IMG/VR virus record: IMGVR_UViG_3300032307_000705
Location: 1 to 64,000 of that record
Reading direction: 5' to 3' (one strand)
Origin: a virus
Length of the DNA: 64,000 nucleotides
Part shown: in pieces, positions 5,353 through 26,097 of the stretch
Numbering within the stretch: position 1 is the first letter of the stretch
How the letters are laid out: each line of letters begins with the position of its first letter
Translations under genes and position numbers: made by a program
The notes under the pieces: generated by a model
Seen by the model: only the letters and a program-made list of their open reading frames with translations
Told to the model about the DNA's origin: nothing
Database searches by the model: none

Positions 5353-5361
5353 TTGAAGATT

Positions 5362-6549
5362 ATGAAGTATTTTAATTTATTGTTTGATAGTAATATCGAA
5401 AACGAAAAGGAACATATTTTTAACACTTTGACTGCTAACAAAGTTGACGAGATTAAAATGATTGATATTAATAATTTTGAGATTGACTCCGAACAAAAAT
5501 ATTATTCATTTACAATAACAGGAACTTATATGGAAAATTTCCAATCACTTCCTGCGTCCTCAAAAGTAAAAGAGTTAATGAAATCGTACTCCAATTGCTT
5601 TCTTGTTATTTTAGCGGAACATGAGTCCGACAATGGAAACGTAATAAAACTTATTGAAAAATATTGTAATGAAGAATCGATTAATTCGAATCAGGTAATT
5701 GCAATCAATGGAAATCAGAAAATAAAAAAATTAATCAATGAGTTAGATAGTAAAGTTGTTGGACATACTTCAAATAGGTTACCTTATGTGGCGGTCGAAG
5801 GAATGACCTCATTCAAGTACGAATTTCAAAAAGACAAAGAATCATTTTTTATGTGCTATAACAGAATGTTAAAACCACATAGAGTGTCTCTGTTGGCGTT
5901 ACTGAAAAGAGAAGGGATATTAGATGAAGTTGATTGGACAATGTTACGTGGTAATGAATTGAATGAACGATTCTCCGATCCAGATGGAACACCATCATTC
6001 AATTTATTTTTTGAAGTTTTTGATAGAGACGACTTCAAAGAATATTATAATGAAATATTATTTCTTCAAAAATCAGGGGTTAAAAAAAGTAGGTTTGAAG
6101 AAGAATATAGAGTTGACCAACCACCTTACTTCATTGACTTTTATAAAACATATGAAATGAATCCTTATAGAAATTCATATGTTAATATTGTTACCGAAAC
6201 TGGTTACATATCCACAGATGTAATTCATATTACGGAAAAATCATTGATGCCAATTTATTATTCTCAAATTCCTTTGATATTGGCTAATTTTGAACATAAT
6301 AAGTTCTTGAAAGAAAGATATGATTTTGATTTGTTTGAGGATATTATTGATTATTCTTATGACAATGAAAAAGACCCGAGAAAACGGATTTTTATGTTTG
6401 TTGATGAAGTGAAAAGATTAAATTCTATCAAAGACGAAATAATTAATTTTTATAAAAATAATCAGGAAAGATTTGAACTTAATAAGAAAAAAGTTACAAG
6501 TATATTACAAGATGATACCGATTACAAGTTTTTCAAAAGTTTAATATAA
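5362..6549 (+). CDS. hypothetical protein, possible GT10-like glycosyltransferase
   Basis: CYNR..KPHR, VNIVTET...ITEKS..PI....P, FDLF.DIIDYSYD; paralog of 1490-2665; ends KSLI. Confidence 0.45.
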   Translation: MKYFNLLFDSNIENEKEHIFNTLTANKVDEIKMIDINNFEIDSEQKYYSFTITGTYMENFQSLPASSKVKELMKSYSNCFLVILAEHESDNGNVIKLIEKYCNEESINSNQVIAINGNQKIKKLINELDSKVVGHTSNRLPYVAVEGMTSFKYEFQKDKESFFMCYNRMLKPHRVSLLALLKREGILDEVDWTMLRGNELNERFSDPDGTPSFNLFFEVFDRDDFKEYYNEILFLQKSGVKKSRFEEEYRVDQPPYFIDFYKTYEMNPYRNSYVNIVTETGYISTDVIHITEKSLMPIYYSQIPLILANFEHNKFLKERYDFDLFEDIIDYSYDNEKDPRKRIFMFVDEVKRLNSIKDEIINFYKNNQERFELNKKKVTSILQDDTDYKFFKSLI

Positions 6550-7076
6550 TGGAATACAAAGATTCATTAACAATCGCAATGACAAAGTTAGGAAAAATGG
6601 ATAATACTATTTTTCTTGGGCAACAGATATTATTTCCGGGAAACCCGATGAGTTCAACTTTGGTCGATGTTCCAAAAGAAAAAATGATTGAATTACCGGT
6701 GATGGAAGATTCTCAAATGGGAATGTCTTTGGGTATGGCAATGACAGGGAAATTTGTGATTACATTTTATCCGAGATGGGACTTTTTGATTTGCGCTGCT
6801 AATCAATTAATAAACCATGTTGATAAGATGGAATTAATGAGTAATGGTCAGTGGAAACCAAATATGATTATTAGAGTCGGTAAAGGATCGGAAATACCTT
6901 TGAATCCAGGCCCTCAACACAGAAATAATTATTTCAAAGAGTTTCAGTCAATAACTCACACAATAAAATTCTTTGATTGTTTGACTGCGGATGATGTTAA
7001 AACCGCTTATGGCCACGCAATAAATGAGGGAGGGATAACCTTAATTAATGAATATCCCGAAAAATACAATTCATAA
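6549..7076 (+). CDS. TPP-dependent enzyme, E1 beta/transketolase pyrimidine-binding subunit (no C-terminal domain)
   Basis: IELPVMEDSQMG.S.G.A..G, DFL..A.NQL.N, GPQH. Confidence 0.8.
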   Translation: MEYKDSLTIAMTKLGKMDNTIFLGQQILFPGNPMSSTLVDVPKEKMIELPVMEDSQMGMSLGMAMTGKFVITFYPRWDFLICAANQLINHVDKMELMSNGQWKPNMIIRVGKGSEIPLNPGPQHRNNYFKEFQSITHTIKFFDCLTADDVKTAYGHAINEGGITLINEYPEKYNS

Positions 7077-8743
7077 TGTACGTACTTGGCATTTCATCTT
7101 TTTATCACGATTCATCCGCCTGTCTATTCAAAGACGGGGAGTTGGTGTTTGCTTGTGAAGAGGAAAAATTTACGGGAATTAAACATGATAGTTCTTTTCC
7201 AATTAATACAATTGAATACATCTTTAGTCATTATAGTATAACTTATGATGATATTGAAATGGTGTGTTATTATGAGGACCTCAATCTGAAACTAAAAAGA
7301 GTATTGAGTAACATCAAGAAAAACTTTTTTAGATCACCAAAATATTCTTTGAAATCTTTAGTTAAAATCTTGAAAAATATCTCAGATGTAAATAAACATT
7401 TGAGACCATTTAAGGGAAGAGTATTTTACTCCGAACACCATTTGGCTCATCAGTATTATTCTTTTTTCACTTCCGATTTTGAAAGGGCTATCTGTTTGTC
7501 TATTGATGGTGTTGGTGAAATTGATACCTTGTCTTTTGGGTTAGCGGATGATGATGGAATTGAATATCATGATTTGGGGAAATATCCACATTCATTAGGT
7601 CTTTATTATTCTACAATGACTTCTTATTTGGGGTTCAAACCAAATGAGGGGGAATATAAATTAATGGGATTAGCATCATACGGAGACCCGCAAGAGTATA
7701 TTGAAAAAGTTAGAAGTTTAATAGAATTCAAAGAGGGAGAATTAATCTGTGATATGAATGTTTTTTGTTGGGATAAGTCAGAAAAATTGATGTTCAACGA
7801 AAAACTAATAGAGCATTTAGGGATTTCACCAAGATTAACTGAAGAAGAAATTACTACAATTCATCAAAATTTAGCAGCGGCAGTTCAACTAAGATACGAA
7901 GAAGTTTTATTCGATATTATCAGAAGTTTGAAAAATCTTGGTAGTAATAATCTATGCTTAGGAGGTGGTTCGGCATATAATGGTACTGCGAATGGGAAGA
8001 TAGTATCCAATTCGGATTTTGAAAAAATTTGGATACCAGTTGCTCCATCTGACGCTGGATCCTGTGTTGGCGCTTGTATTCATTACCTTGTACAAAATAA
8101 AAAATTAACAAAAAGAGTTACCAAGAATCCTTTTTTGGGACCAAAGTACGATGTTGAATTTTATTTGGGTCACATTAAAAATTTGAACTTTTTTGAAATT
8201 CACGATTACAATAGATTAATAAAATACGTTGCAGAAAAAATACATGAGGGTAAAGTAGTTGGGTGGTATAGAGATAGAATCGAATTCGGAGCAAGAGCAT
8301 TAGGACATAGGTCTATTTTAGCCGACCCTACAGTTCCTGATATGAAATCCAGAATTAATAGATTGATTAAGAAAAGAGAAGGATTTCGTCCTTTTGCTCC
8401 TATGGTCACGAAAGAAAAACAACATAAGTTTTTTCATACGATTGATGATGTTCCATACATGAATCAAATTGTTAAAGTTAGAGAAGAATATGTTGATAAA
8501 TTATTAGCGGTTGTTCATGTGGACGGAACCTCAAGGATTCAAACTGTCTATAAAAATACTGTTATTCACGATTTATTAACTGAGTTTGAAAAACTAAGCG
8601 GATACCCAATTATATTGAATACATCCTTTAACATCAAAGATAAAACAATGGTACTGACTCCGTGTGATGCGATAGAAACCTTCAAGGACACTGACTTAGA
8701 TCTGTTAGTTTTGGATAATTATATAATACACAAAATACTATGA
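7076..8743 (+). CDS. O-carbamoyltransferase (NodU/CmcH family)
   Basis: LGIS..YHDSSA, EEEKFT.IKH, HH.AH, DGVGE, GEYKLMGLASYG, EFGARALGHRS, RE.FRPFAP, HVDGTSRIQT, LNTSFN. Confidence 0.92.
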   Translation: MYVLGISSFYHDSSACLFKDGELVFACEEEKFTGIKHDSSFPINTIEYIFSHYSITYDDIEMVCYYEDLNLKLKRVLSNIKKNFFRSPKYSLKSLVKILKNISDVNKHLRPFKGRVFYSEHHLAHQYYSFFTSDFERAICLSIDGVGEIDTLSFGLADDDGIEYHDLGKYPHSLGLYYSTMTSYLGFKPNEGEYKLMGLASYGDPQEYIEKVRSLIEFKEGELICDMNVFCWDKSEKLMFNEKLIEHLGISPRLTEEEITTIHQNLAAAVQLRYEEVLFDIIRSLKNLGSNNLCLGGGSAYNGTANGKIVSNSDFEKIWIPVAPSDAGSCVGACIHYLVQNKKLTKRVTKNPFLGPKYDVEFYLGHIKNLNFFEIHDYNRLIKYVAEKIHEGKVVGWYRDRIEFGARALGHRSILADPTVPDMKSRINRLIKKREGFRPFAPMVTKEKQHKFFHTIDDVPYMNQIVKVREEYVDKLLAVVHVDGTSRIQTVYKNTVIHDLLTEFEKLSGYPIILNTSFNIKDKTMVLTPCDAIETFKDTDLDLLVLDNYIIHKIL

Positions 8744-8856
8744 AAACAATTATTGATTGGTTTTTGAAAAAAATCAAAGATCGCAAACGGAAAAAAGAAT
8801 TAAAGAAGAAAATCGAAGAGTTGAAAAAAAGAGATCCTTTTATTTACAACCATTAA
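8740..8856 (+). CDS. 38-aa basic micro-protein ending RDPFIYNH
   Basis: Translated by hand: MKTIIDWFLKKIKDRKRKKELKKKIEELKKRDPFIYNH; ATGA overlap with the carbamoyltransferase stop. Confidence 0.6.
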   Translation: MKTIIDWFLKKIKDRKRKKELKKKIEELKKRDPFIYNH

Positions 8857-8884
8857 ATTTGATTATTAGATAATATGAATTTAT

Positions 8885-9379
8885 ATGGGAGTAATTAGAT
8901 TTACAACTGATGAATGTGCTAAAATTATTTCACTGTCAAATGTTTTTGAAAAACATTTATCAAGTGAATGGTGGGAGGGTAATCAGACCATATATTCAGC
9001 ATGGCATTTAGAAAGGAATGAAATGACTGAGTGGATTTTCGAAAGATTATTAACTTATCTCGAACAAAATACAAATATAGTCTTAAAACAACCTCTAAGT
9101 TTGATTCATTTACAAAATGTTCAAACTGGAAACAAGTTTGAACCTCATATAGATAAAAGGAGTGAATATAACGTAGGGGTTTGCCTTAATGATGATTACG
9201 GAGGTGGGGAACTCATATGTTATGAACCAAAAATTATCTTACCTAAAATTACTGGAAGTATATATACATTCTACGGTACTAAGGTTCATGAAGTTAAAGA
9301 AGTAACCTATGGAGAAAGATGGTCTTTAATCGCGTTTTTCGATAAAAATACGATTGATAGAAAGAAAAATTCAATATAG
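8885..9379 (+). CDS. 2OG-Fe(II) oxygenase
   Basis: F.PHID, LNDDY.GGEL, HEVKEVT.GERWSL. Confidence 0.85.
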   Translation: MGVIRFTTDECAKIISLSNVFEKHLSSEWWEGNQTIYSAWHLERNEMTEWIFERLLTYLEQNTNIVLKQPLSLIHLQNVQTGNKFEPHIDKRSEYNVGVCLNDDYGGGELICYEPKIILPKITGSIYTFYGTKVHEVKEVTYGERWSLIAFFDKNTIDRKKNSI

Positions 9380-9410
9380 ATAAATGCACTATGTATAAAA
9401 ATTTTTTCTA

Positions 9411-9418
9411 TATTTATA
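9411..9418 (+). promoter_or_regulatory. putative late promoter TATTTATA
   Basis: Recurrent intergenic motif, 17 nt before the ATG at 9436. Confidence 0.5.
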
Positions 9419-9435
9419 ATTGAACAAAAAATATT

Positions 9436-11718
9436 ATGAAAGGAACCTTATTTTCGGCTGACTTTGTCAAAGACTCAGATGGCAATTTGAGATTGTTAGA
9501 ATTAAACACTGATACAGGATTTATTAAACAAGAATTACAAAATTTCGATTTTTCTCAGTTCGAACAAATGTTAGAGGATAATAATATTTCTGAACTAGAT
9601 ATCATATATAAACCGGATCTCCATGAATATTTTGTAAACCAATTATTATCTTCTCTATCACTTGAAATTCCTGTAAACTTACATAAAGAAGATAATACTA
9701 CAATATATCCAACGCAAGTTACAAATTCTGATAATAGATTTATTTTAAGATTAGCGTATGATGAATCCGCTTTATTTGATAGTGAATATTGTAAAAATAG
9801 ATTGAATGTGTTCAATTTATTTACTGATAATTCCATAAATGATTATTGTGTTGGATATTATCATTCATCATCATCGGGAGTAAAAAATACTCTTACAAAG
9901 GAGATAAATCCAAATAATATACCCGATGCTACTATAAAAGATGTAGATGAATCACACAATCCAATTGATTTCTTCAAAATAGGTTCTCAAAATGAAAATG
10001 AATCAGTCGAAGACCGGTGGAACAACTTTATTAGTGAAAATGATACAGAAGATAAATTGATAGAACAATATCACTTTCACCCATCTAGTGTTGATGTAAA
10101 CAATCACATAACATCATATAGATTTTTTGGAATAGTGTATGGGTCTAATTTGGAAGTAGTAACTTTACACACTTACAAAATTAGTTCAATATTCGATTTA
10201 CCAATTGATTTAACATCTGAAATAGTTGAGAACAACTACACAAACAAAATTCCTGATTTCCATTACTACGAGTTTGCAACTAACTTATTCAGGGGTGATT
10301 CTTCAGGAATATTATCAACTCATGAAATTTTAACTGACGAAAACACTTATAAACCGATATCAGAATTTGTTGTCGGAGATTATGTGAAATCGTACTATGT
10401 ATCTCGTTCTCTTGAAGACAAGTTGAATCTTGATTTTACTTTTCCAACTGACACACCACCAAATGGATCATATCTTACATCATCGGTTGTCGTTTATAAA
10501 GCAATCGAAAATTTAACATATAATAGTATGTTCGAATTAAAAGTAGATAATGATTCTTTTTTCTGTGGAGTGAATAAACCATTTTTGGTTTTTGATTCTG
10601 ATTCTAATACTAGCTCATTTAAGCAAGTACATAAAATAAAACCAGGAATAGATTATCTATACGATATTGATAGTAATATGGTTGGCATAGATGAATTGAA
10701 TTTCTATGTGTCCACCGACAATAATTTAAGTTATATCGAACTGGATGTTGAAGATACCGATACCTATATTATAAATGGATCTACCTCAATCCATTCGATA
10801 GTTTCTCATAATTCTCCTTGTTTTGTTGCGGGTACACAAATTTTGTTAGAAAATGGACTTACAAAAAATATTGAAGATGTAGTTGTAGGTGAATATGTAA
10901 TGTCATTTGATTTGAAAAATAACGAATCGAAAGTTAGTAAAGTTCTAAATATTTTTTCTAAAAAAATCGACAAGATTGTTGAATATGAATTTTCGGATGG
11001 AAGTACTTTGAAAGCAACATTAGATCATCCAATTTATGTTATAGATAAAGGATGGGTCAACTATTTAGGTGAACCAGAACAATATAATAATATTTCATTT
11101 GACGGAATCAAACCGGCCAAAAAACTGGAAGTAGAAAAAATACAAATCGGTGATAGTGTAAAATTACATAATGGAGATATTAAATTGATTAATATGAATG
11201 TAATAGAAGAATCCACAATCGTATATAATTTATCAGAAATTGAAAAATACCATACATATTTTGCTAATAATGTATTAGTTCATAATTTTAGACCAGTTCT
11301 TATCTGTTTTACGGCTGAAACTAAAGTGAAAATGGAAGATGGTAGTTTCAAAAAAATTGTTGATATCGAAATCGGAGATTATGTTTTAAGTTACAAGGAT
11401 GGTAAATACGTAAGAGGTGTCGTGACTGATAAATTAATACACCCAATGAATTCAATAATTGAAGTTGTTAAATATAAAGGAATGACCGCCGATAGGTTAC
11501 ATCCATTTTATGATAACGGAGAATGGAAACCAATTTGTGAAGCTAAGGGAGTTGAATTTGATGTTCAATATGTAGATAATTTTTATAATTTAGAAGTAGA
11601 TGGTGATGTTTTATTTGAAAGTGATCATAATTTTATAGTAGAGGATTTTGTGGTTTCTGGTTTAGGAGATAATGAATTACTTAATACAACATTCAAAAGA
11701 CAAGCAGTTTTTCAATAA
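9436..11718 (+). CDS. circularly permuted ATP-grasp-like domain fused to three tandem Hint (intein-like) domains
   Basis: N-terminal ADFVKDSDGNLRLLELNTDTG, later IKD, IEQY, YR; Hint blocks CFVAGT..I....K.IEDV.VG.YV, T.DHP, VYNL..HTYFAN.VLVHN. Confidence 0.75.
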   Translation: MKGTLFSADFVKDSDGNLRLLELNTDTGFIKQELQNFDFSQFEQMLEDNNISELDIIYKPDLHEYFVNQLLSSLSLEIPVNLHKEDNTTIYPTQVTNSDNRFILRLAYDESALFDSEYCKNRLNVFNLFTDNSINDYCVGYYHSSSSGVKNTLTKEINPNNIPDATIKDVDESHNPIDFFKIGSQNENESVEDRWNNFISENDTEDKLIEQYHFHPSSVDVNNHITSYRFFGIVYGSNLEVVTLHTYKISSIFDLPIDLTSEIVENNYTNKIPDFHYYEFATNLFRGDSSGILSTHEILTDENTYKPISEFVVGDYVKSYYVSRSLEDKLNLDFTFPTDTPPNGSYLTSSVVVYKAIENLTYNSMFELKVDNDSFFCGVNKPFLVFDSDSNTSSFKQVHKIKPGIDYLYDIDSNMVGIDELNFYVSTDNNLSYIELDVEDTDTYIINGSTSIHSIVSHNSPCFVAGTQILLENGLTKNIEDVVVGEYVMSFDLKNNESKVSKVLNIFSKKIDKIVEYEFSDGSTLKATLDHPIYVIDKGWVNYLGEPEQYNNISFDGIKPAKKLEVEKIQIGDSVKLHNGDIKLINMNVIEESTIVYNLSEIEKYHTYFANNVLVHNFRPVLICFTAETKVKMEDGSFKKIVDIEIGDYVLSYKDGKYVRGVVTDKLIHPMNSIIEVVKYKGMTADRLHPFYDNGEWKPICEAKGVEFDVQYVDNFYNLEVDGDVLFESDHNFIVEDFVVSGLGDNELLNTTFKRQAVFQ
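10306..10812 (+). other. Hint domain 1 (no N-terminal Cys, intact C-terminal HN, +1 Ser)
   Basis: GILSTHEILT...KPISEFVVGDYVKS aligns with block A with Gly at position 1; ends ELDVEDTDTYII...IVSHN|S. Confidence 0.6.
10819..11286 (+). other. Hint domain 2 (complete: Cys1, TxxH, HN)
   Basis: CFVAGTQI...ATLDHPIY...VYNL.EIEKYHTYFANNVLVHN|F. Confidence 0.85.
11305..11661 (+). other. Hint domain 3 (Cys1 present, terminal HN replaced by SG)
   Basis: CFTAETKV.MEDG..K.I.DI.IGD.V, LHPF, FYNLEV...HNFIVEDFVVSG. Confidence 0.75.
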
Positions 11719-11749
11719 AATTAATTTTAATAAATAAAAATAAATAATT

Positions 11750-11902
11750 ATGGATATAGATAAACACCCACCTCTATATAAAAAAAAGTCAATAAATGAT
11801 GTAAATAATAGAACTACATCTCAACTGACAACTGAACAAAAACAAAGAGTTCAAGTTGTAATCAATAAATTTTTTGAATTATTTATTGCAAAACATTCAT
11901 AA
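11750..11902 (+). CDS. 50-aa hypothetical micro-protein
   Basis: Translated by hand: MDIDKHPPLYKKKSINDVNNRTTSQLTTEQKQRVQVVINKFFELFIAKHS; fills the gap after the Hint gene and has an A-rich leader. Confidence 0.55.
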   Translation: MDIDKHPPLYKKKSINDVNNRTTSQLTTEQKQRVQVVINKFFELFIAKHS

Positions 11903-11936
11903 TAAAATATTAAAATGAAAATCTAATATATAAGTT

Positions 11937-12326
11937 ATGATATATTTTAGATATAGATTTAACACACGAGGTGTTGGGATTGTATCAAATAGTCAAATAG
12001 TGAAAGACACTTATATAGGGAATTGTGCCTCTAAGTTTGAAACTATAACAAAAGAGAACAGAATAATTTATAACGGGTGGATTGAAACGAACCCATTAGG
12101 TAGATACATAAATCATAATAGAACCCCAAATTGTAAAGTAATTTTGGATGGTGATACTGTTAAGTTGTATTCGATGAATAATATTGATATGTGGGAAGAA
12201 CTTACAGTAAATTATTTAGATTTTGCAAATGTAATTGAAATGCCTGAAAATTTGTTAGAAAAATTTGGAATAAGAGATTTCGATTACATTCCTGAGACAA
12301 TAAAAGTAGAAACTAAATTAATATAG
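11937..12326 (+). CDS. SET-domain methyltransferase
   Basis: GVG, GRYINHN..PNC, I...EELTVNY (NHxxxPN and ELxxxY SET motifs). Confidence 0.8.
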   Translation: MIYFRYRFNTRGVGIVSNSQIVKDTYIGNCASKFETITKENRIIYNGWIETNPLGRYINHNRTPNCKVILDGDTVKLYSMNNIDMWEELTVNYLDFANVIEMPENLLEKFGIRDFDYIPETIKVETKLI

Positions 12327-12362
12327 AATTTTTTTGTTTGGAATAGAATATCATATTATTAG

Positions 12363-12884
12363 ATGCAAGCCGTTATTCAAAAAAAATTATTTAATAAAGA
12401 TGAATGTGATTATTTCAAATCATTGTCTGACGATAAATCGTTTCAACGAGAACACAGTAAACTTCTAATTCTATCGGAACATAGAACTTGGACTGAGTCA
12501 GTGATAGATTTGAATTATGATTTATCAAATATAATATTGGAGAAATTAAAAGAATTTGGAATTGTAAGTTTACCCAAATTTTTTGTAATTCTAAAATATA
12601 TTAAGGGCCAAGAATTAAAAAGACATAATGATACTGCCCTACAATATCCAAACAGATATAAAACTTTGATAATACAACTTTCAAATGAAACCGATTATGA
12701 TGGTGGAGAACTATGCATTTTTCAAAATGGTAAAACTACTATCTCATCAAAAGAAATCGGGAATGTTATAATGTTTGATTCGTCTATAGATCATTGCGCT
12801 AATAAAATTAAGGATGGCATACGATATAGTATGGCTTTTTGGCTATCTATAGATAATTTTGGATTAAATAAATCTCTAGTATAA
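12363..12884 (+). CDS. 2OG-Fe(II) oxygenase
   Basis: KY..G..LKRHND, IQLS..DYDGGEL, FDS..DH....I.DG.RYS. Confidence 0.85.
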   Translation: MQAVIQKKLFNKDECDYFKSLSDDKSFQREHSKLLILSEHRTWTESVIDLNYDLSNIILEKLKEFGIVSLPKFFVILKYIKGQELKRHNDTALQYPNRYKTLIIQLSNETDYDGGELCIFQNGKTTISSKEIGNVIMFDSSIDHCANKIKDGIRYSMAFWLSIDNFGLNKSLV

Positions 12885-12939
12885 CATTGAATTCAATTTA
12901 TGTGTATAGTGATAAAGGTTTATTGAACGATGAATCATT

Positions 12940-14007
12940 ATGATTGAAAAATCAAAATATATTTGTGAAGTTCCATTCACATCCTTAGAGATTCATGACC
13001 ATCAAAGATTTTTATGTTGTGCATCTTGGTTAACTAAATTTTTACCTGATGATACTAAACCAAACGAAGCATGGAATTCCGAGGAAGCGAATGACATTCG
13101 AAATAGTATATTAGACGGTTCATATAGGTATTGTGATGATAAACAATGCCCGTTTTTACACCAATTAAATACATTTGGTGATGTTGGTAGAATACAGCCT
13201 ATCTACCATAAAGATAAACTAACCCCCGAGTTAAAATTAAAAATAGAAAAACATAAAGAAGGTAAATTAACATCACCACAGATAGTTCAATTTTCGATGG
13301 ATAGGAGTTGTAACCTTGAGTGTCCCTCATGTAGATTGGAGATGATTATTGCTGATAGCAAAAAAATTAAAAAAGTAAAACAAGATATACAAGATATTGA
13401 AGACTCATTTGGAAGTGAAGTTAATACACTATACATAACGGGTAGTGGAGACCCATTTGTGTCAGTTGGTTTTAGAGATTTTTTAAGAAATTTTGATAAA
13501 TCTAAATGGCCAAAATTGAAAACAATTCACTTACATACTAATGCAACACGTTGGACTAAGGAAATGTGGGAATCGATGCCAAACATACATCAATATGTTA
13601 AAAGTTGTGAAATTAGTGTCGATGCTGGAACTAAAGAAACCTATGAAACAAAAACAAGAATAAACGGTGATTGGGATTTATTAGTAGATAACTTGAAGTT
13701 TATCTCTACAATACCAACTTTAAGGAGTATAAAAACTTCGTTTGTAGTCCAACAAAAAAATTATAAAGAAATGAAGTTATTCTACGATTTAATGTATTCT
13801 ATTTTTGGTGAAAAGGTAAATGTGTTTTTCGGTAAAATAACTAATTGGGGTACATTTAGTGAAGATGATTTTTTATTAGAACAAATTTGGAATGAATCTC
13901 ATCCGGAGTATAACGAATTTATAAAAGAAGTTAATTCTTTCTTGCCAAACAATTATAGTTGGAGTAATTTACAAGAATTTATCACACCTGTTAAAACTTT
14001 AATATGA
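12940..14007 (+). CDS. radical SAM protein with N-terminal SPASM/twitch-like Cys domain
   Basis: CNLECPSC (CxxxCxxC), ITGSGDPF, HTNA, ISVDA; N-terminal C..PF...CC..W...WNS..A..IR...C....CP. Confidence 0.85.
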   Translation: MIEKSKYICEVPFTSLEIHDHQRFLCCASWLTKFLPDDTKPNEAWNSEEANDIRNSILDGSYRYCDDKQCPFLHQLNTFGDVGRIQPIYHKDKLTPELKLKIEKHKEGKLTSPQIVQFSMDRSCNLECPSCRLEMIIADSKKIKKVKQDIQDIEDSFGSEVNTLYITGSGDPFVSVGFRDFLRNFDKSKWPKLKTIHLHTNATRWTKEMWESMPNIHQYVKSCEISVDAGTKETYETKTRINGDWDLLVDNLKFISTIPTLRSIKTSFVVQQKNYKEMKLFYDLMYSIFGEKVNVFFGKITNWGTFSEDDFLLEQIWNESHPEYNEFIKEVNSFLPNNYSWSNLQEFITPVKTLI

Positions 14008-14570
14008 TTATTACAATATTGAGTGAGCCGAGATCTGGAAGTACTAATTTATTATTTTGGTTAGGGCAACATAATGAATGTACCGTACTTCTTGAACCAA
14101 CAACTAATTCTGAATATAAAAAATATTCAGATAAAGAAGTGGTTATAAATGAAATCAATGATTTTAATACGTGGAAATATTTGACAAAACATTTAGTTAT
14201 TAAAGAAATTTGTGAACCAAATAAAAATTATGAAACTATACTCCAACATTCTGATAAAGTTATAATTTTATTTAGAGAAAATTATATTGAACAAAAAGAG
14301 TCTTGGTTAATGTCAATAAACACAAAAAAATGGGGAGGAGAATATTTTTTGGATGAATCGTTATTATTGGATAGTAATGACAATTATTTAATTGAAATCA
14401 AAAAAGAAATCGAGAAATATAAAAATTCAAATAATTTTGTAATTTCTTACGAAGAATTGTATTTCAATAATGGAATTAAAAAATTAATTAATTACATTGG
14501 TATTGAAGAATTAAATGAAAATAAATTTCCTTATGGACAAAAATATCGAAAATACAAGGTAGTGATATAA
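14004..14570 (+). CDS. sulfotransferase-family protein
   Basis: PRSGST 5'-PSB loop, EP, I.L.REN...Q..S, ISYEEL. Confidence 0.7.
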   Translation: MIITILSEPRSGSTNLLFWLGQHNECTVLLEPTTNSEYKKYSDKEVVINEINDFNTWKYLTKHLVIKEICEPNKNYETILQHSDKVIILFRENYIEQKESWLMSINTKKWGGEYFLDESLLLDSNDNYLIEIKKEIEKYKNSNNFVISYEELYFNNGIKKLINYIGIEELNENKFPYGQKYRKYKVVI

Positions 14571-14646
14571 CATAAATCAATAATATGGTGATAAAAAACA
14601 CACATTTTTGGTATTAATCAACTATTATTTAATTGATTTAATTTTT

Positions 14647-15456
14647 ATGAAAAAAACATATTATCCATCTTTGAATACATTAAAATATTGGACTCCTGAA
14701 GGATTTGAAATTTCAAGTTATAAATGGAATTTGTCGGAGAAAGTTAATCAATCGTATGACACATCTGGATCTGATAAAACTAAATTGTGTACCTATACTT
14801 ATAATGAATTGGGATTTAGGGGAGATTCGGTATCAAAGGAAGGGTTCAAAATCATGAGTATTGGAGATTCAAATACAGAAGGTGTCGGGGTTAACAATGA
14901 TGAAACATGGCCGGCACAATTTTCTAAATTAATACCTAACGGAGTGAATCATAACTTTGGTATGGGTGGGAGAAGTAATGATTATATATCAAGATGTTTG
15001 ATAACATATTACGATTTTATCAAACCTGACTTAGTCTTGATTATGTATACGTCACCACAAAGAAGAGAACTTTATACTAAAGACGGTGGATTAGAACCCT
15101 TCATGATAACCTCACAGTGGGGGTATACAGAAGAAACTGAAGAAGGCAGAGAAGTTCAACAAAGTTTAACTACAATACAAAACGACTATGCAGATTTTAT
15201 GAATTGGTATAAGAATCACCTTTTAATAAAATATTTTTTGGAATCCAAGAAGTGTAATTGGTTGTGGAATGGATGGTATGAAGTACCTCTGATATATGAG
15301 GAATTTAATCGGTTTGATGGATTATATGGTAAATTTGTGGATGATGCTGTTGACTTTATTCATCCAGGCCCTTTACACAATAAAATTTATGCTAAAAACT
15401 TGATGGACCACATATACACAAACTTTAGAAGTTATGTACCAAATAATTTGATTTAA
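14647..15456 (+). CDS. SGNH/GDSL hydrolase-family protein (possible acyltransferase)
   Basis: YN.LGFRG, IGDSNTEGVG, NFGMGG.SN, D..HPG; ATG at 14647 preferred over TTG at 14608. Confidence 0.75.
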   Translation: MKKTYYPSLNTLKYWTPEGFEISSYKWNLSEKVNQSYDTSGSDKTKLCTYTYNELGFRGDSVSKEGFKIMSIGDSNTEGVGVNNDETWPAQFSKLIPNGVNHNFGMGGRSNDYISRCLITYYDFIKPDLVLIMYTSPQRRELYTKDGGLEPFMITSQWGYTEETEEGREVQQSLTTIQNDYADFMNWYKNHLLIKYFLESKKCNWLWNGWYEVPLIYEEFNRFDGLYGKFVDDAVDFIHPGPLHNKIYAKNLMDHIYTNFRSYVPNNLI

Positions 15457-16127
15457 TTTCTATTATCAATATATATCATAATTTCGTTATAATAAGGAAT
15501 AAAGTTTTCATTCCATATTGACCAAGTAATATCAATTCCATCAAAAGAATAAACTTTGAAATTAGGGAAAAATCTTAAATAAACATCTCTGAATATTCTG
15601 AACTTTTCTTTCATCCATCCTTCTCTTAAATGCCATTCACCTGAAATTTTTCTCACATTATTTTTAATCCAAAATAAATTTTCCAATGTGAAAATATCGT
15701 ATTCACCAGTTTCACAGTCAGTTTTCAAGAAATCAATTTTTTTGATGTTGTAATCTTTGATTACCTTATTGAATGTAGTTGAATAGAGTTTATGGCCACC
15801 TGAAACATCAAATACTTCAGAAAATTCAAATTCTCCGATAGCGTTGGTTATGCCTTTATTAATATGAGTAACATTTCCATGTCTTGTATTCAAAACTAAT
15901 GTTTTGAATTCTTCGAAACTTGGTTCAAAGGCAAAAACCTGTGAAGGATTTTTGTGTAAGATAGAATAGGTGAATGGGCCAAGACTAGCTCCAATATCAA
16001 ACACTACATCTCCCTCCTCGACTTCGAAGAATCTTTCATAAATTTTATCCACGAAAATTTCTTTTTCGACGGTTTCTCGGAATCCTTCATAACATTTAGG
16101 TTCCCAAACAAAGTTTTCTAAGTTCAT
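15453..16127 (-). CDS. FkbM-family methyltransferase
   Basis: VFDIGASLGPF, AFEP, IDFLKTDCE.GEY; ATGA overlap with the upstream gene stop. Confidence 0.85.
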   Translation of the reverse strand: MNLENFVWEPKCYEGFRETVEKEIFVDKIYERFFEVEEGDVVFDIGASLGPFTYSILHKNPSQVFAFEPSFEEFKTLVLNTRHGNVTHINKGITNAIGEFEFSEVFDVSGGHKLYSTTFNKVIKDYNIKKIDFLKTDCETGEYDIFTLENLFWIKNNVRKISGEWHLREGWMKEKFRIFRDVYLRFFPNFKVYSFDGIDITWSIWNENFIPYYNEIMIYIDNRN

Positions 16128-19100
16128 TTTAATAAGTGTTGTATTTGATTTATTACCATTTCTGGTGTTATTGATGTATGACATTCAAATTGTCGGTTTG
16201 TTCCTTTGTGGACTGGACACCAATTCCAGTCTCCTTTATCGAATTTATATATAGGACTATTCCAACACCCGTTGCAAACATTTGGATTTGTAATTCTTGT
16301 ACAGTTAGAGGTAAATTCGTGGTCAGGTTCTGTGAAATTACTAATCATTACAACGTGTTTACCCATTGCCCAAGATAACCAAGATAGTCCACTTGATAAA
16401 CCAATAAAGAATTCACTGTGATGGATTACATTCATTGTATAATCCATCGCAATGTCTTTTATTTTTTCACAGTTGTCGAATCGATTATCTTCTTTAGATA
16501 CATTGATAACTTTATATCCGAGAGAATGAAGATAATTTATAAGACCTTGCCATCCCTCTTTTGTCCAAAACTTACACCCTGCGGTTGAGTTGGTTGCAAT
16601 TGTTACATATTTCTCTTCATAAGGTCTTTCAATAATTTTATAAGAGATTCTTGGTTTAATCTCTTTATATGGTAACCCCAATATGTTTGTCGCAGCTTGT
16701 TGTAAAGGGATTGTGTTTGGGGTAATGGGTTCTTTTTTGATATCATAGTACCATCCAATATTGTATTGACCAAATATATTATAAACAACACTTCCTGGTT
16801 CAACAAATTCTAATTCAGGATACACTTCACGGAATAAATGGTTCCAATATGTTGAAACAACTACCTCGCATTTGTGGGTATTTTTGAATTCTAAAACATA
16901 AGGTATCCATGATATTGTATCCCCCAAAGAACTGCTGTCAAAATTTATAAAAACACGTTTCCCCTCATAATTTAGAGTTTCATCATATATTAAAACCCCA
17001 TCTTCAAGAACTTTTGTATTCCATTTTGTAAAATATTGCCGATTTAATTTAACCCAATGATTTGTTTTTATTTTATTATGATAATGGCAGATATCGAATT
17101 CATCAAAGAATTTTATATCATATTCGCTATTACTTTCTCCGATAATTTCTAAAAATGGTTCATTTATGAAAAATTGTTTAATGTTTACTTTGGTACTATT
17201 TTTAGATTTCTTTCTTGGTTCTTGGGTTAATAAATAATTATAAAGATTATAATGTTTAACGGCAAATTCTTTAGTCATGCCATCTAAAATTTTATAGTCC
17301 CGACTTGATGAGATTAATCTGCGTAATGAATTTACATTTGAGAGTAAATCGTCCGTAAGAGGAGTGATTAAACCGTTGAACATTCCGACATATTGAGGTA
17401 AATCTCTTGCAATTATTTTCAACCCCAACGATGCCGCTTCACGTATCACAAGAGGATTACATTCCCAAGTTGAATTGAACATTAAAATATCTGAAGCTTT
17501 CATAAATGTTTCAACATCGTTTCTTTCTCCCCAAACTTTTACATTAGATGGTAGATTAGCCATTAAAGGCCCCCAATAACTTTCAAAGTTTGATGCTTGA
17601 TTTCCCACGAAATGGAATTCAACATTTGTATTTTCGAAATGTCTAGCAATTTCTATTCCCTCACCTTGATTTTTACCTGATGTCCAAAGTCCAACATTGA
17701 TAATATGTACCTTTGTGATATCTAACTCTAATTCTTCTTGTGCTCTAACTTGGTCTATACGAGTTCTAAATTTATTTTCTATTGGGTATTCAAAAACTTC
17801 TTGGTGAGATGGCATTCCTTTGAATGTCTTTTGTAAATGGTATGGAGTACACAAAGCGTACGCATCTGGATGAAAGTGTTTTGAGGACCCTGGGTCGAAC
17901 CAAATGTTATGGCATGTCTCAACCACTCTCCACGTTCTATCGTTGTCATAGAGGGCATGTTTAAGTTCGTCAGGTACTTTATTGAAAGAATCAAATCCTT
18001 CAATCATTTCATCAACATGTACAATATCTATGAAATGAGTTTTGAGAAGGTCAATCACTTTCATAGAGTTTTCAACCGTATGGTCATCCAAAGTGTTAAT
18101 AGTCCAAAATCTTTCTTCGGGGATTATTTGTTTTATTCTATCTCGTTGAACGGTGTATAGTGTTGAATATTGACAAAACTCAGCGAGAAAAAATTCTACG
18201 TCGGGATAATAGGATGAAATAGATTCGATTCTTTTTAATAAATAAGAGGGCATACCGCCTGTGGAAAGATGAGGAGCTAAATACAAAACCCTAAGTCTTT
18301 TTGGTTCAGATTTTGGAAAATATTCGCAGTCGGAATCGATCCAAGGAGAGTGTTCTAATAGTTGTTCAGCAATTGAAACATCTCCGATTTCAAATTTCAA
18401 TTTTTCTAAATCTTCCAATGCAATTTGATTAGTTAAAATTATAGGGTTATGATATTCTCTTTTTACTGACAAGTGATAATCTACGAATTTGAAGTCACCA
18501 CCTTGGATTAAATCTGATATTGAGACGATATGATTAGGAATACCATATGCATCCGATGCGATTAACCCATGTAAACTTGATGATAATATGTTTTCACATT
18601 CCAAAAGTTCATCTATGAACTCATATATTCCCGAAGTTATATTAATAATTTTAATACCTAAGTTTTCAATATTGTTAATTACCCTCAGTCCTTCTATAGT
18701 TGTGTAATCGGAGTAGTGGGGTATTAACCCATATTTATACTTTTTTTCTATTTTTGGGTTATATATTTTTGGAAAAAGTAATGCTGGATCACCATATATT
18801 TCAGGTACTTCCCACCCTTTTCTCATCAAAACTTCTCTTGTTTGTGGACCCCGAACCGCATATATTTTTTTAGGGATATCTCCGATACTATCATTGTCAA
18901 TACATCCTGTACCCCAGACATAATCATTAGGTTTGGTAAATCTTGTTAAACTACCCGTCCCAATAATTTTTCCATTTTTGAATGGAATTATACCCCGACT
19001 ATCAAAGTGAAAAACATCTTCATCATTTAATTTTTTTCCTGAAAAATGTTCCAAAATGAATTTGGTAATAATGTCTCCCCAATTTTTTGATGGGTCTATG

Positions 19101-20068
19101 TTTGGATATTCTCTAATCTCTTCGGAGGTGGTGTTATATTTTTTTATTTCTTTTACCATCTCTCTCATTAATTCAATATTTTTTTCTCCATGAAAAAACA
19201 AGAGATGTTCTTTATAATAAGGTACTCGTAACCAATTTCCATGAAAATTGAATGTGCCAGGTCCTTTGTATTCTAATTCATTATACATTTTGTTCACGGT
19301 CTCAACACTACCGTTAACATAGATATAAGGTAATCCCTCTTGAATATTATATTTCCAAAGCAAAACATTTGAGATTGTTTCTTCGTCGTATGGGGCATAA
19401 TGACTTATATTGTTTAGAATTTTCGGATGATTACACATCCAATACCATTCATCTAAAAAATCATATGTGTTTTGTCCTGCAACAAAATATCCTGTTTGTC
19501 TATAAAACTTTCTTACTGTTTGGTCAACATTGAATAGTTCGCATGCGTTGTGCTCGAGAGTGTCAGACCATCCACCTCCCAACGCGCCTCCACCACCTCT
19601 ACCATCGTATTTCAAAAATTCATATATCCCTTCAACAAAATAAGGGAATGCCGAGTCTTCTTTGAAATATGAGAATATGGTATCAATTAATGGAGTTGCA
19701 ACAGAATCACTATCGACGTAGCATACTGTGTTAGAATACTTCGATAGGGCATCTTTGATGACTAGTGGTCGTTGAATTAAAATCTTATAAATTGTTGGAT
19801 TTTTTCTATCAATATAGAAATTATTATTATTTTTAAGATAAAGTTCATTCGATAAATCATTAATTTGTAAGTCCCATCTTATTGTTTTGGTATTTGAGAC
19901 TTCAACTTGTTTGTCTGAGTTTATGAGATAGACTATAACAGGTAATTCACTGAATTCTCTAATAGATTTTACGCATTCGGTAAGAATATCAAAATAGTTT
20001 TCAGTTGAACACAAAACGAATGATTTATCGAATTTTGTTATATTTTCATTGGTGTTTGAATTATTCAT
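16124..20068 (-). CDS. four-domain glycosylation enzyme: GT-A-like + polysaccharide pyruvyltransferase + GT4-like + TibC/Aah-like O-heptosyltransferase
   Basis: YVDSD; NWGD..AVRGP.T..GDPALL..SSSLHGLI.SDAYGIP; APHLSTGGMP..KNQ..STWECNPLVIREA; SLGD.I.W..FIGLSSGLSWL.WA..ISNFT..EF..CNGCWN..WCP.H..FEC. Confidence 0.75.
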   Translation of the reverse strand: MNNSNTNENITKFDKSFVLCSTENYFDILTECVKSIREFSELPVIVYLINSDKQVEVSNTKTIRWDLQINDLSNELYLKNNNNFYIDRKNPTIYKILIQRPLVIKDALSKYSNTVCYVDSDSVATPLIDTIFSYFKEDSAFPYFVEGIYEFLKYDGRGGGGALGGGWSDTLEHNACELFNVDQTVRKFYRQTGYFVAGQNTYDFLDEWYWMCNHPKILNNISHYAPYDEETISNVLLWKYNIQEGLPYIYVNGSVETVNKMYNELEYKGPGTFNFHGNWLRVPYYKEHLLFFHGEKNIELMREMVKEIKKYNTTSEEIREYPNIDPSKNWGDIITKFILEHFSGKKLNDEDVFHFDSRGIIPFKNGKIIGTGSLTRFTKPNDYVWGTGCIDNDSIGDIPKKIYAVRGPQTREVLMRKGWEVPEIYGDPALLFPKIYNPKIEKKYKYGLIPHYSDYTTIEGLRVINNIENLGIKIINITSGIYEFIDELLECENILSSSLHGLIASDAYGIPNHIVSISDLIQGGDFKFVDYHLSVKREYHNPIILTNQIALEDLEKLKFEIGDVSIAEQLLEHSPWIDSDCEYFPKSEPKRLRVLYLAPHLSTGGMPSYLLKRIESISSYYPDVEFFLAEFCQYSTLYTVQRDRIKQIIPEERFWTINTLDDHTVENSMKVIDLLKTHFIDIVHVDEMIEGFDSFNKVPDELKHALYDNDRTWRVVETCHNIWFDPGSSKHFHPDAYALCTPYHLQKTFKGMPSHQEVFEYPIENKFRTRIDQVRAQEELELDITKVHIINVGLWTSGKNQGEGIEIARHFENTNVEFHFVGNQASNFESYWGPLMANLPSNVKVWGERNDVETFMKASDILMFNSTWECNPLVIREAASLGLKIIARDLPQYVGMFNGLITPLTDDLLSNVNSLRRLISSSRDYKILDGMTKEFAVKHYNLYNYLLTQEPRKKSKNSTKVNIKQFFINEPFLEIIGESNSEYDIKFFDEFDICHYHNKIKTNHWVKLNRQYFTKWNTKVLEDGVLIYDETLNYEGKRVFINFDSSSLGDTISWIPYVLEFKNTHKCEVVVSTYWNHLFREVYPELEFVEPGSVVYNIFGQYNIGWYYDIKKEPITPNTIPLQQAATNILGLPYKEIKPRISYKIIERPYEEKYVTIATNSTAGCKFWTKEGWQGLINYLHSLGYKVINVSKEDNRFDNCEKIKDIAMDYTMNVIHHSEFFIGLSSGLSWLSWAMGKHVVMISNFTEPDHEFTSNCTRITNPNVCNGCWNSPIYKFDKGDWNWCPVHKGTNRQFECHTSITPEMVINQIQHLLK

Positions 20069-24672: not shown

Positions 24673-26097
24673 ATGGCTGTACAAGTAACTATAAACGATA
24701 TTTCAGGGCAAACTCCGTATGACATTTATGTTTGTCAGGTAGATGGGTCAGGTTGTTTTTATATATCAACAATAACGGATTCATCATTTCCATATGTTTT
24801 TGATATACCGGCCCCTAATGATACATCTGCGAATTATATGATAAAGGCAATTGACGCAAACAATTGTGTAATATCGGGAACAAGTTCGGTTAATTTCTTT
24901 GTAACTCCAACTCCAACTCCAAGTTCAACACCTTGGAACTATTGCTTTAGTTTTAACGGGGGGTTCAATAATCAACCTGAAGACGCTGTCGAAGATAGTA
25001 GTGGTCGAATTATATTCGTAGGGGGTTTTACAACGTATAGTGGATTACCGTTCAATAGGATAGTTAGAATAAATGGAGATGCGACCGTAGATAATACATT
25101 CAATATAGGTACTGGATTCAACGACGTGGTAACTGAAGTTAAGATACAACCTGATGGAAAAATACTTATTGGGGGTATTTTTACTTCTTATAATGGAACC
25201 CCCGCAAATAAAATTATTAGATTGAATAGTGATGGGACTGTGGATGGTACATTTAATAGTGGTACGGGATTCGATCAAATTATTTATGCAATTAGTATTC
25301 AATCAGATGGTAAAATTTTGGTTGGAGGATTTTTCTCACAATATAACGGAGTTCCTTACAATCGTCTGATTAGGTTAAATAGTGATGGAAGTGTAGATAA
25401 CTCATTTACAATCGGCACTGGGTTCAACAATACTATATTTGACATTAAACAACAGGTTGATGGTAAAAAGTTAATCTTTGGTGGATTTACAATATTTAAT
25501 GGGGTAGCACACAATAGTCTGGTTAGATTGAATAATGATGGTTCGATAGATAATACTTTCAATACTGGAGTTGAATTTAATGGGGCGACTTATTCTGGAT
25601 TAATTGACAATGGAAAAATAGTAGCAGTTGGAGATTTTTTTGAATATAGTGGACAAACAAATCGAAACATTGTGAGACTTAATCAAGACGGATCGATTGA
25701 TAATACATTTAATTCTGGAAACGGATTTACACGGACATCTGGATTATCTTATGCTTTGAGTATATCGAACTATCTTGGTAAATATTTCATCACAGGAGAT
25801 TTTAATACATATAACGGAGGTTCATCAAATGGACTAATAATGCTGAACAATGATGGTAGTATTGACCCTACATTCAATGTGGGTACTGGATTAATTTTTG
25901 GATCTTCTACGGATAACCGTGGGTTTATACTATCTAATGGGATTCATGTTGTATATGGGACATTTATAGGATATAATGGGTATGAGGCTAATGATATTGC
26001 ATTCTTAAACCCATTTGGAACATTATTAAATTGTTTGTTACCCACCCCTACTCCAACGGCAACACCAACATATACTCCAACACCAAGTTCAACTTAA
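24673..26097 (+). CDS. delta-60 repeat beta-propeller protein with Cys-containing N-terminal module and PT tail
   Basis: About 6 repeats of Q.DGKILVGG.F..YNG....I.RLN.DG.VD.TF..GTGF. Confidence 0.8.
   Translation: MAVQVTINDISGQTPYDIYVCQVDGSGCFYISTITDSSFPYVFDIPAPNDTSANYMIKAIDANNCVISGTSSVNFFVTPTPTPSSTPWNYCFSFNGGFNNQPEDAVEDSSGRIIFVGGFTTYSGLPFNRIVRINGDATVDNTFNIGTGFNDVVTEVKIQPDGKILIGGIFTSYNGTPANKIIRLNSDGTVDGTFNSGTGFDQIIYAISIQSDGKILVGGFFSQYNGVPYNRLIRLNSDGSVDNSFTIGTGFNNTIFDIKQQVDGKKLIFGGFTIFNGVAHNSLVRLNNDGSIDNTFNTGVEFNGATYSGLIDNGKIVAVGDFFEYSGQTNRNIVRLNQDGSIDNTFNSGNGFTRTSGLSYALSISNYLGKYFITGDFNTYNGGSSNGLIMLNNDGSIDPTFNVGTGLIFGSSTDNRGFILSNGIHVVYGTFIGYNGYEANDIAFLNPFGTLLNCLLPTPTPTATPTYTPTPSST

Follow-up and report, generated by a model that had tools for sequence, protein, structure and literature searches.

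A phage gene module built on an ATP-grasp-type ligase fused to tandem intein-like Hint domains, with a candidate self-trimming mechanism

ATP-grasp amide ligation and autoprocessing by Hint domains of the bacterial intein-like (BIL) kind are each known chemistry, and it is their combination that marks the gene described here. Type-A BIL domains are defined by a Cys at position 1 (Cys1), a C-terminal His-Asn and the lack of a nucleophile at position +1, and cleavage dominates over splicing in them (PMC4031507). We analysed a stretch of virus DNA of 64,000 nucleotides (the window; positions 1 to 64,000 of the IMG/VR record IMGVR_UViG_3300032307_000705), in which an open reading frame (ORF) at 9436..11718 on the + strand encodes a protein of 760 residues and ~86 kDa. 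It consists of a ligase domain of the ATP-grasp type followed by three Hint domains, a gene for a 50-residue partner protein lies directly downstream, and most of the enzymes encoded around it end in a common C-terminal tag. No description of the ATP-grasp-Hint fusion, of its half-disabled first Hint, of the 50-residue partner or of the common tag was found in the papers and family libraries searched.

The closest described Hint systems are the type-A BILs, such as the domain from C. thermocellum (2lwy) and BIL2 of the polyubiquitin-like BUBL locus of Tetrahymena (6y75/6tmm), with which the locus shares the mini-Hint format, the absence of an endonuclease, Cys1, the TxxH motif, His-Asn and the lack of a +1 nucleophile. 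An earlier reading of the window from its letters alone (the sequence-only reading) had invoked Asn cyclisation and Cys1 chemistry, and this is indeed the established chemistry of type-A BILs and of BUBL (PMC4031507, PMC8616854). BUBL moreover also has cargo between its BIL domains. However, while BILs are found in a secreted bacterial protein or in a ubiquitin-like chain, the host protein here is a phage ATP-grasp ligase, the pieces between the domains are generally 0–14 residues long (2 and 6 in the window protein), the first Hint appears to be permanently fused at its N-terminal end, and the last Hint of the window protein lacks His-Asn. This last domain, Hint3, recalls the Hedgehog autoprocessing domain in its residue pattern, with Cys1 and a block-B His but no terminal Asn, and in having a conserved C-terminal extension, yet the extension comprises 18 residues as against the sterol-recognition region of ~60 residues in Hedgehog. 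Engineered systems of the TWIN and SICLOPPS-like kind likewise bracket a short peptide by an upstream Asn-cleaving and a downstream thioester-forming Hint, whereas the arrangement here is natural and the bracketed piece is not conserved, may be absent and carries no N-terminal Cys.

On the side of the ligase, YgiC/YjfC, GspS, the (homo)glutathione synthetases and the fungal Cp1B share a fold that is collinear with the N-domain from residue 1 and an early E-x-N motif. In contrast to these enzymes, the glutathione synthetases (GS) among them, the N-domain has ~290 residues, lacks the N-terminal 90–300 residues that precede their matched region, is fused to Hints and shows no family match at the sequence level. 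The gathering of an ATP-grasp ligase, a protein of ~50 residues and tailoring enzymes in one block also recalls the LysW/LysX, pearlin and RiPP (ribosomally synthesised and post-translationally modified peptide) pathways. In the LysW system, a carrier of ~54 residues, which combines a Zn finger with the acidic C-terminal EDWGE, is served by a ligase of the RimK/LysX type. The module described here is not of this type, the partner having neither a Zn finger (it contains no Cys) nor an acidic C-terminus, since it ends K-H-S, and the ligase being GS/GspS-like in structure (Z ~9) rather than RimK/LysX-like. It differs furthermore from carrier and scaffold pathways in that the common tag sits on the enzymes and not on a substrate. 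The same kinds of neighbouring enzymes in large T4-like phages were described by Iyer et al. (2021; PMC7824862) as a cyanophage cluster of carbamoyltransferases, 2-oxoglutarate (2OG)-Fe(II) dioxygenases and methylases with a predicted metabolite derived from an amino acid and a sugar; that description, in contrast, contains no ligase-Hint protein, no partner and no tag.

The ligase domain and its three Hint domains

The domains of the protein follow one another on the + strand in the order that the sequence-only reading had proposed: the N-domain (residues 1–290; 9436..10305), Hint1 (residues 291–459; 10306..10812), the junction dipeptide Ser460-Pro461 (10813..10818), Hint2 (residues 462–617; 10819..11286), the junction hexapeptide FRPVLI (residues 618–623; 11287..11304), Hint3 (residues 624–742; 11305..11661) and the tail LGDNELLNTTFKRQAVFQ (residues 743–760; 11662..11718 including the stop codon). 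With 169, 156 and 119 residues, respectively, the three Hints have no endonuclease insert, which likewise had been noted there. Pfam assigns Hint, Vint and Intein_splicing to residues 453–617 and 624–745 (E 1e-13 to 2.5e-9) and gives no match for residues 1–450, and a full-length AlphaFold2 (AF2) model has a mean predicted local distance difference test score (pLDDT) of 74.7. The protein is not truncated at its N-terminus, because its relatives begin with the same MKGTLFSADF, a start found in 21 of 21 sampled full-length relatives (alignment A1, 21 sequences) and seen in most of the others, too.

By its predicted structure, the N-domain is a circularly permuted carboxylate-amine ligase domain of the ATP-grasp type with the topology of GS, GspS and YgiC. 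The AF2 model of residues 1–295, calculated from an alignment of 113 sequences, reaches a pLDDT of 95.3 and a predicted template modelling score (pTM) of 0.91. Searching the PDB with Foldseek returned YgiC, YjfC, the synthetase domain of GspS, the (homo)glutathione synthetases of yeast, human and plants and the fungal Cp1B (E 6e-6 to 3e-3, probability 0.9–1.0), with E. coli YgiC as top match (7uka; E 6e-6, probability 1.0) and a probability of 1.0 for YgiC, YjfC, GspS and GS alike (E 6e-6 to 1e-4). In an all-against-all structural alignment (VIA) the highest scores were obtained for GSS22 (5oeu; Z 9.6, 212 residues aligned), YgiC (7uka; Z 9.4) and GspS (2io7; Z 9.1); residues 310–610 of the 2io7 chain pair with residues 1–287 of the model, and the alignments to proteins of the YgiC, GspS and GS types span 205–221 residues starting from model residue 1. 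The classic ATP-grasps LysX, RimK, TTLL and Ddl score lower (Z 4.6–6.2; LysX 5.7) and align only from about residue 50. As the former group aligns from residue 1 and the latter from about residue 50, the topology is the permuted one of GS and GspS, in which the E-x-N hairpin comes first in the chain.

The motifs of the domain are in keeping with this assignment. The domain contains D9, E22-x-N24, K168, E210-Q211-Y212 and R229. In 98–113 diverse homologues D9 and E22 never vary, and conservation reaches at least 90% for N24, K168 and R229. D9, E22 and N24 form a putative Mg triad, onto which the Mg ligands of GspS, D318, E330 and N332, would map according to the alignment ranges, and K168 and R229 are the putative ATP-contacting Lys and Arg. 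Sequence comparison places the domain in no curated family: an alignment of the N-domain alone found nothing among PDB sequence profiles at E values up to 10, and among the ATP-grasp families of Pfam only weak matches to Dala_Dala_lig_C (E 0.02, 2 of 14 members) and GSP_synth (E 0.04, 1 of 14 members) appeared. The sequence-only reading had recognised a permuted ATP-grasp with the metal motif at the start and the K, EQY and R motifs later and had named a structure model for each domain as the check; the motifs, AF2, Foldseek and VIA bear out this part of it, the N-domain being modelled as an ATP-grasp fold. The characterised structural neighbours are without exception ATP-dependent carboxylate-amine ligases, YgiC and YjfC being peptidylpolyamine synthetases (PMC12568646), and by analogy the domain probably joins a carboxylate, possibly the C-terminus of a peptide or protein, to an amine.

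Hint1 has no Pfam match. It is a complete Hint fold, because its profile aligns in register with that of Hint2 (hhalign 88%, E 3e-6, positions 6–40 to 6–40) and its model superposes on the BIL domain of C. thermocellum (2lwy; model residues 287–457, VIA Z 19.4, root-mean-square deviation (rmsd) 1.4 Å over 138 residues) as well as on residues 1–170 of a Prp8 intein (model residues 291–457, VIA Z 16.6). Its catalytic residues are half-disabled, with Gly291 (nucleotide 10306) at position 1 instead of Cys1 and K381 within CGVNKP at the site of the block-B His, and with H458-N459 kept at the end. N459 is invariant and G291 and H458 are conserved to at least 90% in 98 diverse sequences, and this conservation holds also in members that have no further Hint and in a distant subfamily with Cys-rich tails.

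Hint2 carries C462, T528-x-x-H531 and H616-N617 and is followed by Phe618 at position +1. Its best structural match is BIL2 of BUBL (6y75; model residues 460–619, VIA Z 24.0, rmsd 1.2 Å over 143 residues), and the Hedgehog Hint (1at0) gives Z 17.6. C462, T528 and H531 are invariant both in alignment A1 and in alignment A2 (84 sequences), and N617 is invariant in A1 and conserved to at least 90% in A2. Because of C462, H616-N617 and the +1 Phe, Hint2 is a type-A BIL by the published definition; Cys1 and TxxH, which also mark this type, are present in Hint2 and missing from Hint1 (G291, K381). Canonical (class 1) inteins look different, since they sit in a conserved site of a host protein and have a functional C-extein and a nucleophile at +1; here the pieces on the C-terminal side have 2, 6 or 18 residues (1 residue in most relatives) and position +1 of Hint2 is Phe. 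Following the His-Asn of Hint1, the window protein has Ser and most members have Ala, and the canonical Hints of the family, which retain Cys1, TxxH and His-Asn, are followed by R, K or [FYL]R.

Hint3 is related to Hint2 with a probability of 99.9% (hhalign) and matches Pfam Vint at residues 624–745 (E 1.3e-13). It has an invariant C624 and the block-B H689, an Asp where Thr is expected, and S741-G742 in place of His-Asn; judged from these residues, its chemistry would be limited to the formation of an N-terminal thioester. The tail shows the motif SGLGDNxxLNxx[FY]xRQ, which is conserved from near to remote members, and residues 746–759 form a helix in the AF2 model. The pattern of catalytic residues in the three domains is thus the one that had been read from the sequence. 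Sibling Hints of one protein are only ~35% identical, and in 0 of 362 cases was a sibling the nearest relative, so the idea that they are recent tandem duplicates was dropped. They cluster instead by position, last versus internal, in 346 of 362 cases, and since they group in this way and never with their siblings, we regard them as old, maintained lineages specific to their position.

A virus-only family with a partner gene and tagged neighbours

The family is large and was seen only in viral and metagenome data. A library clustered at 90% identity yielded 969 matches, the best 120 of which are full-length or nearly so, are 51–98% identical and lie on contigs of up to 326 kb, and IMG/VR contains 172 relatives (contigs). 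When 1.84 billion cluster representatives were searched with the N-domain by HMMER, 257 proteins came up; almost all of them match from their own residue 1, and their lengths cluster near 460–530, 600–650, 750 and 900 residues. No match was obtained by tblastn of the N-domain against 50,697 GenBank phage records (E limit 0.01), by megablast of the 10-kb region, or by a BFVD fold search with the N-domain at E ≤ 0.001, and a one-pattern scan of 185,579 prokaryote species genomes, whose sensitivity is limited, found no relative. An IMG/VR scan for the distant Cys-rich-tail subfamily, made with a single protein (P0248), gave no match either.

Hidden Markov models of four modules revealed every step from the N-domain with Hint1 to the N-domain with Hint1 and three canonical Hints, that is, 0–3 Hints after Hint1. 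Members without extra Hints stop soon after His-Asn, the tail reading for example K, AKSY, KVKIEPPK or PAPPPKL, in the distant subfamily the His-Asn is followed by Cys-rich tails of ~15–75 residues (13 of 13 representatives), and in two members the sequence past His-Asn gives a weak Peptidase_S74 match that falls short of the curated cut-off (E 0.0035 and 0.0065). In most clades the last Hint ends ...VHN-K-stop, and the variant form seen in Hint3, in which SG is followed by the conserved tail, is found in the clade of the window protein and in scattered remote members. Two relatives also have a free-standing BIL-like Hint ORF of 166–168 residues, which follows the ligase gene at a distance of a few kb (L013:14724-15224 and L061:13669-14175); the first of these has a 14-residue N-terminal peptide, MEKFLNSKQMSNKL, ahead of Cys1 and ends ...VHN-KNL. 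Another observation concerns a low-depth contig of a co-occurring relative (run X5, record 30), which matches the last 38 nucleotides of Hint2 (window 11249-11286) with 5 mismatches and then reads AAATAA (Lys, stop) where the window continues with FRPVLI and Hint3. It fits module boundaries at His-Asn and is, with so short a match and 5 mismatches, only a hint.

The second gene of the module lies at 11750..11902 (+) and encodes 50 residues (MDIDKHPPLYKKK...KFFELFIAKHS), of which Y10, K11 and the penultimate H49 are invariant. In 80 of 80 related loci the ligase gene is followed, after 4–100 nucleotides, by a homologous ORF of 46–53 residues, and the 198 clusters of partner homologues, all of 45–64 residues, belong to no Pfam family. 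The partner might act as a substrate, a carrier or a subunit.

Both genes are embedded in an enzyme block of 11 consecutive genes on the same strand (5353..15456, +; assigned by Pfam). Its products include a 398-residue protein, a transketolase-like protein, a carbamoyltransferase, two 2OG-Fe(II) oxygenases, a SET-domain protein, a radical S-adenosylmethionine (SAM) enzyme, a 188-residue protein and a GDSL-like protein. All of these except the transketolase-like protein, eight of the 11 block genes, end in [K/N]-x-[LSIV]-[ILV] (KSLI, HKIL, KNSI, TKLI, KSLV, KTLI, KVVI and NNLI), compared with about 2 of the 65 other ORFs of the window. Among the relatives the tag is present on 103 of 116 2OG oxygenases, on 21 of 23 radical SAM enzymes and in several unrelated families; in two cultured cyanophages that we examined, taken from the GenBank phage collection that gave no tblastn match to the ligase domain, the tag is missing from the oxygenase, from the carbamoyltransferase and from the proteins encoded next to them. 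The commonest neighbours of the ligase gene are 2OG-Fe(II) oxygenases (73 loci, usually at positions +1 to +6 and in several copies), followed by radical SAM enzymes (30) and carbamoyltransferases (21). We considered that the tag might be the by-product of a signal in the DNA, such as a T4 late promoter lying over the stop codon, and rejected this, as the stop codons are TAA, TAG and TGA, the codons differ and no common downstream sequence exists. TATAAATA is not enriched in the window (12 observed versus 9.2 expected).

Proposed processing of the protein and the fate of its junctions

The reading that we favour, and to which we give about an even chance, is that of a self-trimming ligase, in which the cut at the Asn of Hint1 is universal and the trimmed ligase works with the partner and the tagged enzymes. 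With the partner gene, the ORF would make up a conserved two-gene module restricted to viruses, of which it supplies the large component. Its ligase would stay fused to Hint1, the junction being predicted uncleavable with Gly291 in place of Cys1, and everything past N459 would be removable after translation because Hint1 keeps the site for C-terminal Asn cyclisation; cyclisation of N459 would cut off all downstream sequence. In Hint2 a thioester would arise at C462 and cleavage would take place at N617, Hint3 would be limited to a thioester at C624, and the extra BIL Hints would in this manner remove or activate themselves. The predicted products are a ligase-Hint1 core of residues 1–459 ending in a succinimide, free Hint2, Hint3 with the tail, and SP and FRPVLI, which would be remnants of junctions that vary between lineages rather than a conserved output. 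The working unit would consist of the trimmed ligase, the 50-residue partner and the neighbours with the common C-terminal tag, and it might plausibly act on a C-terminal carboxylate, by analogy to YgiC and GspS. We favour this reading because its elements are universal, namely an active-looking ligase, a ligase-Hint1 junction that looks uncleavable, an invariant Asn in Hint1, the partner gene and the tagged neighbours.

Several points weigh against it. The processing is deduced wholly from conserved residues. A Pro at position -1 is unfavourable for the N-S shift, and the N-terminal junction of Hint2 may therefore be slow or silent, P461 being invariant inside the near subfamily and only there. 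The lone hypervariable segment is always either terminal or placed between a His-Asn and the Cys1 that follows it, and Cys-rich segments of ~20–60 residues, or the weak Peptidase_S74 match following His-Asn, look more like cargo than like a linker. Finally, the basic residue after nearly every canonical His-Asn and the near-universal terminal Lys are not explained by self-trimming. A wider proposal, which we consider possible and put forward tentatively, is that the ligase-Hint protein and its partner share one undescribed virus pathway of T4-like jumbo phages with the neighbours that carry the tag, which are oxygenases, radical SAM enzymes, carbamoyl- and methyltransferases. A self-cleaving scaffold would present and then autocatalytically release or transfer a ribosomal peptide or a C-terminal residue, and the ATP-grasp ligase would recruit or ligate the enzymes via their K-x-Phi-Phi tails, which would amount to a new ribosomal natural-product or protein-tagging system.

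The sequence-only reading had taken the release of the two linkers as the purpose of the design. The pairs of Hints would excise segments with a free amine and a thioester-activated carboxyl group, yielding cyclo(Ser-Pro) and a linear, cyclic or ligated FRPVLI that might serve as signals or tags. The residues needed are at hand in the window protein, in which the retained sites N459, C462, N617 and C624 bracket precisely the two linkers, as had been noted, and FRPVLI is the sole hypervariable segment. The bracketed position of this segment across the family, and the Cys-rich pieces found there or as terminal tails in some lineages, speak for a released product as they speak against self-trimming, and so does the presence of a weakly matching Peptidase_S74 module, of a self-cleaving kind, in place of a downstream Hint in two members. 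In the class with four Hints (Hint1 and three canonical ones) the junctions almost all have exactly two residues (AP, R-x, K-x), and dipeptidyl thioesters cyclise readily. Furthermore, BUBL can dispense cargo from between its BILs (PMC8616854).

A comparison of the junctions in 275 distinct family members, however, tells against conserved peptides. The junction after Hint1 is AP in 111 members, SP in 35 and absent in 27, in which HN and C are directly joined, and the rest have other strings of 1–14 residues. Junctions from Hint to Hint read R (alone in 14 members), RA, KA, KF, RAPV, RAPVVS, [FYL]RP-x and many more, almost always starting with a basic residue. At the site of the hexapeptide the relatives show R, RA, RAPV, YRPPV, LRPPA, LRPVFS or RGTTTTTVLPL, and FRPVLI itself was found in 2 proteins only. 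A few Cys-rich pieces of 30–61 residues extend the overall range to 0–61 residues. Each protein has at most one hypervariable piece and keeps the others minimal, as in AP+R+K, AP+RAPV+[Hint3 variant], PYGAGRGAYYGF+K or AP+RF+KF+K. At loci with AP+R+K or K alone there are as many as six 2OG oxygenases or two radical SAM enzymes, along with 6–10 tagged neighbours, the set of tailoring enzymes being equally full with or without an inter-Hint peptide and independent of junction length. Because the junctions shrink to 0–1 residue and the enzyme set is unaffected, the segments look like a variable region that can vanish and not like a conserved product. The output would moreover be stoichiometric, with one peptide for each protein of 760 residues, and the Pro at -1 may hinder formation of the thioester. 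The expected variation of the linkers among homologues is thus found, while the complementary Cys1 and His-Asn ends are not a rule of the family, as most clades keep His-Asn on the last Hint. Taken together, the excision of the inter-Hint segments as peptides is weakly supported, the release of the linkers as purpose of the design is not borne out, and we judge this explanation unlikely, if still worth weighing. A role as cargo is possible for the hypervariable segment in parts of the family, since it is bracketed, hypervariable and sometimes Cys-rich (~20–60 residues).

The basic residues could also be understood if the thioesters at C462 and/or C624 were resolved by an external nucleophile, such as the partner's invariant Lys11, a polyamine or some molecule of the host, in a transfer like that of Hedgehog or BUBL, by which the ligase-Hint1 unit or a junction peptide would become attached and for which the helical tail of Hint3 would recruit the adduct. 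The layout of Hint3, with Cys1, block-B His, no His-Asn and the extension SGLGDNxxLNxxFxRQ, is of the Hedgehog type, the partner has an invariant Tyr-Lys, a basic residue stands after nearly every canonical His-Asn, and BIL2, the best structural match, makes Lys isopeptides (PMC8616854). However, most clades have no ending of the Hint3 type and stop at HN-K, and Arg, a non-nucleophilic residue, occurs at position +1 as often as Lys does, so that we hold such a transfer to be rather improbable.

To the view that the canonical Hints are selfish or near-neutral BIL or mini-intein insertions in a dispensable tail, kept active only since a failure of their removal would harm the ligase and having no added function, we give a small chance. 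It would account for the presence or absence of 0–3 Hints among otherwise similar proteins, for joined remnants (AP+R+K, AP+RAPV+K) that resemble the tails of Hint-less members (PAPPPKL, KVKIEPPK) and for the free-standing Hint ORFs near the gene in two relatives. It does not agree with the absence of homing endonucleases, with the age of the Hints, which are position-specific lineages and not recent spreaders, with the maintenance of the Hint3 variant and its conserved tail across remote members or with the conserved basic residue at +1. That the Hints form a non-processing structural or binding array, a thought to which the partial degeneration of Hint1 and Hint3 lends no direct support, is very improbable, being hard to reconcile with C462, T528, H531, C624 and N459, which are invariant over hundreds of sequences, and N617, which is nearly so.

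The phage and what the module may mean for it

The source record in IMG/VR measures 83.7 kb and is estimated to be 24% complete. A capsid protein of the T4 gp23 type is encoded in each of five long relatives (202–326 kb), four of which have a completeness rating of at least 97%. The host of the gene is a large uncultured freshwater T4-like phage and the module belongs to T4-like jumbo phages; an identity as nucleocytoplasmic large DNA virus (NCLDV) was dropped in view of the gp23-like gene in all five relatives. The NCLDV capsid family was also absent from the record of the window and the five long relatives in a search that matched no control genome either. In the two relatives of 324–326 kb (loci L085, L087, L084 and L088; G001:C1:136712-138250 and G002:C1:79709-81178) the gp23-like match is in two pieces (profile positions 3–70/93 and 83/109–356) within one open frame of 582–604 residues, which suggests that the major capsid gene carries an insertion of ~100–180 residues, perhaps an intein or an additional domain.

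At least 5 studies besides the possible source contain near-identical DNA, in metagenomes from freshwater, lake and estuary sites. One metagenome contig spans the whole gene pair with 5 differences, and two more span 1981 bases with 9 differences, none of which breaks the frame. No RNA dataset was among the records that match the locus, and the runs compared consist of DNA contigs. Elsewhere in the window, a 1314-residue protein (16124-20068, -) has domains of a polysaccharide pyruvyl transferase as well as of GT1 and GT9 glycosyltransferases and adjoins an FkbM-type methyltransferase (15453-16184), which suggests a block for the modification of surface polysaccharides beside the ligase cluster. 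A 474-residue DUF5122 beta-propeller protein with six repeats (24673-26097, +; E 9e-67) and a 446-residue leucine-rich-repeat protein (53905-55245, +) are unusual for a phage.

The family is abundant in large aquatic T4-like phages of 200–326 kb, where it lies within hypervariable islands; the oxygenase and carbamoyltransferase genes of these islands have been unexplained for a long time. If the proposed processing and ligation are true, part of these 'dark' islands would be explained. The proteins would then provide a case from nature in which BILs are arrayed in tandem with minimal exteins, and they might become a source of compact self-cleaving, thioester-forming modules for protein engineering.

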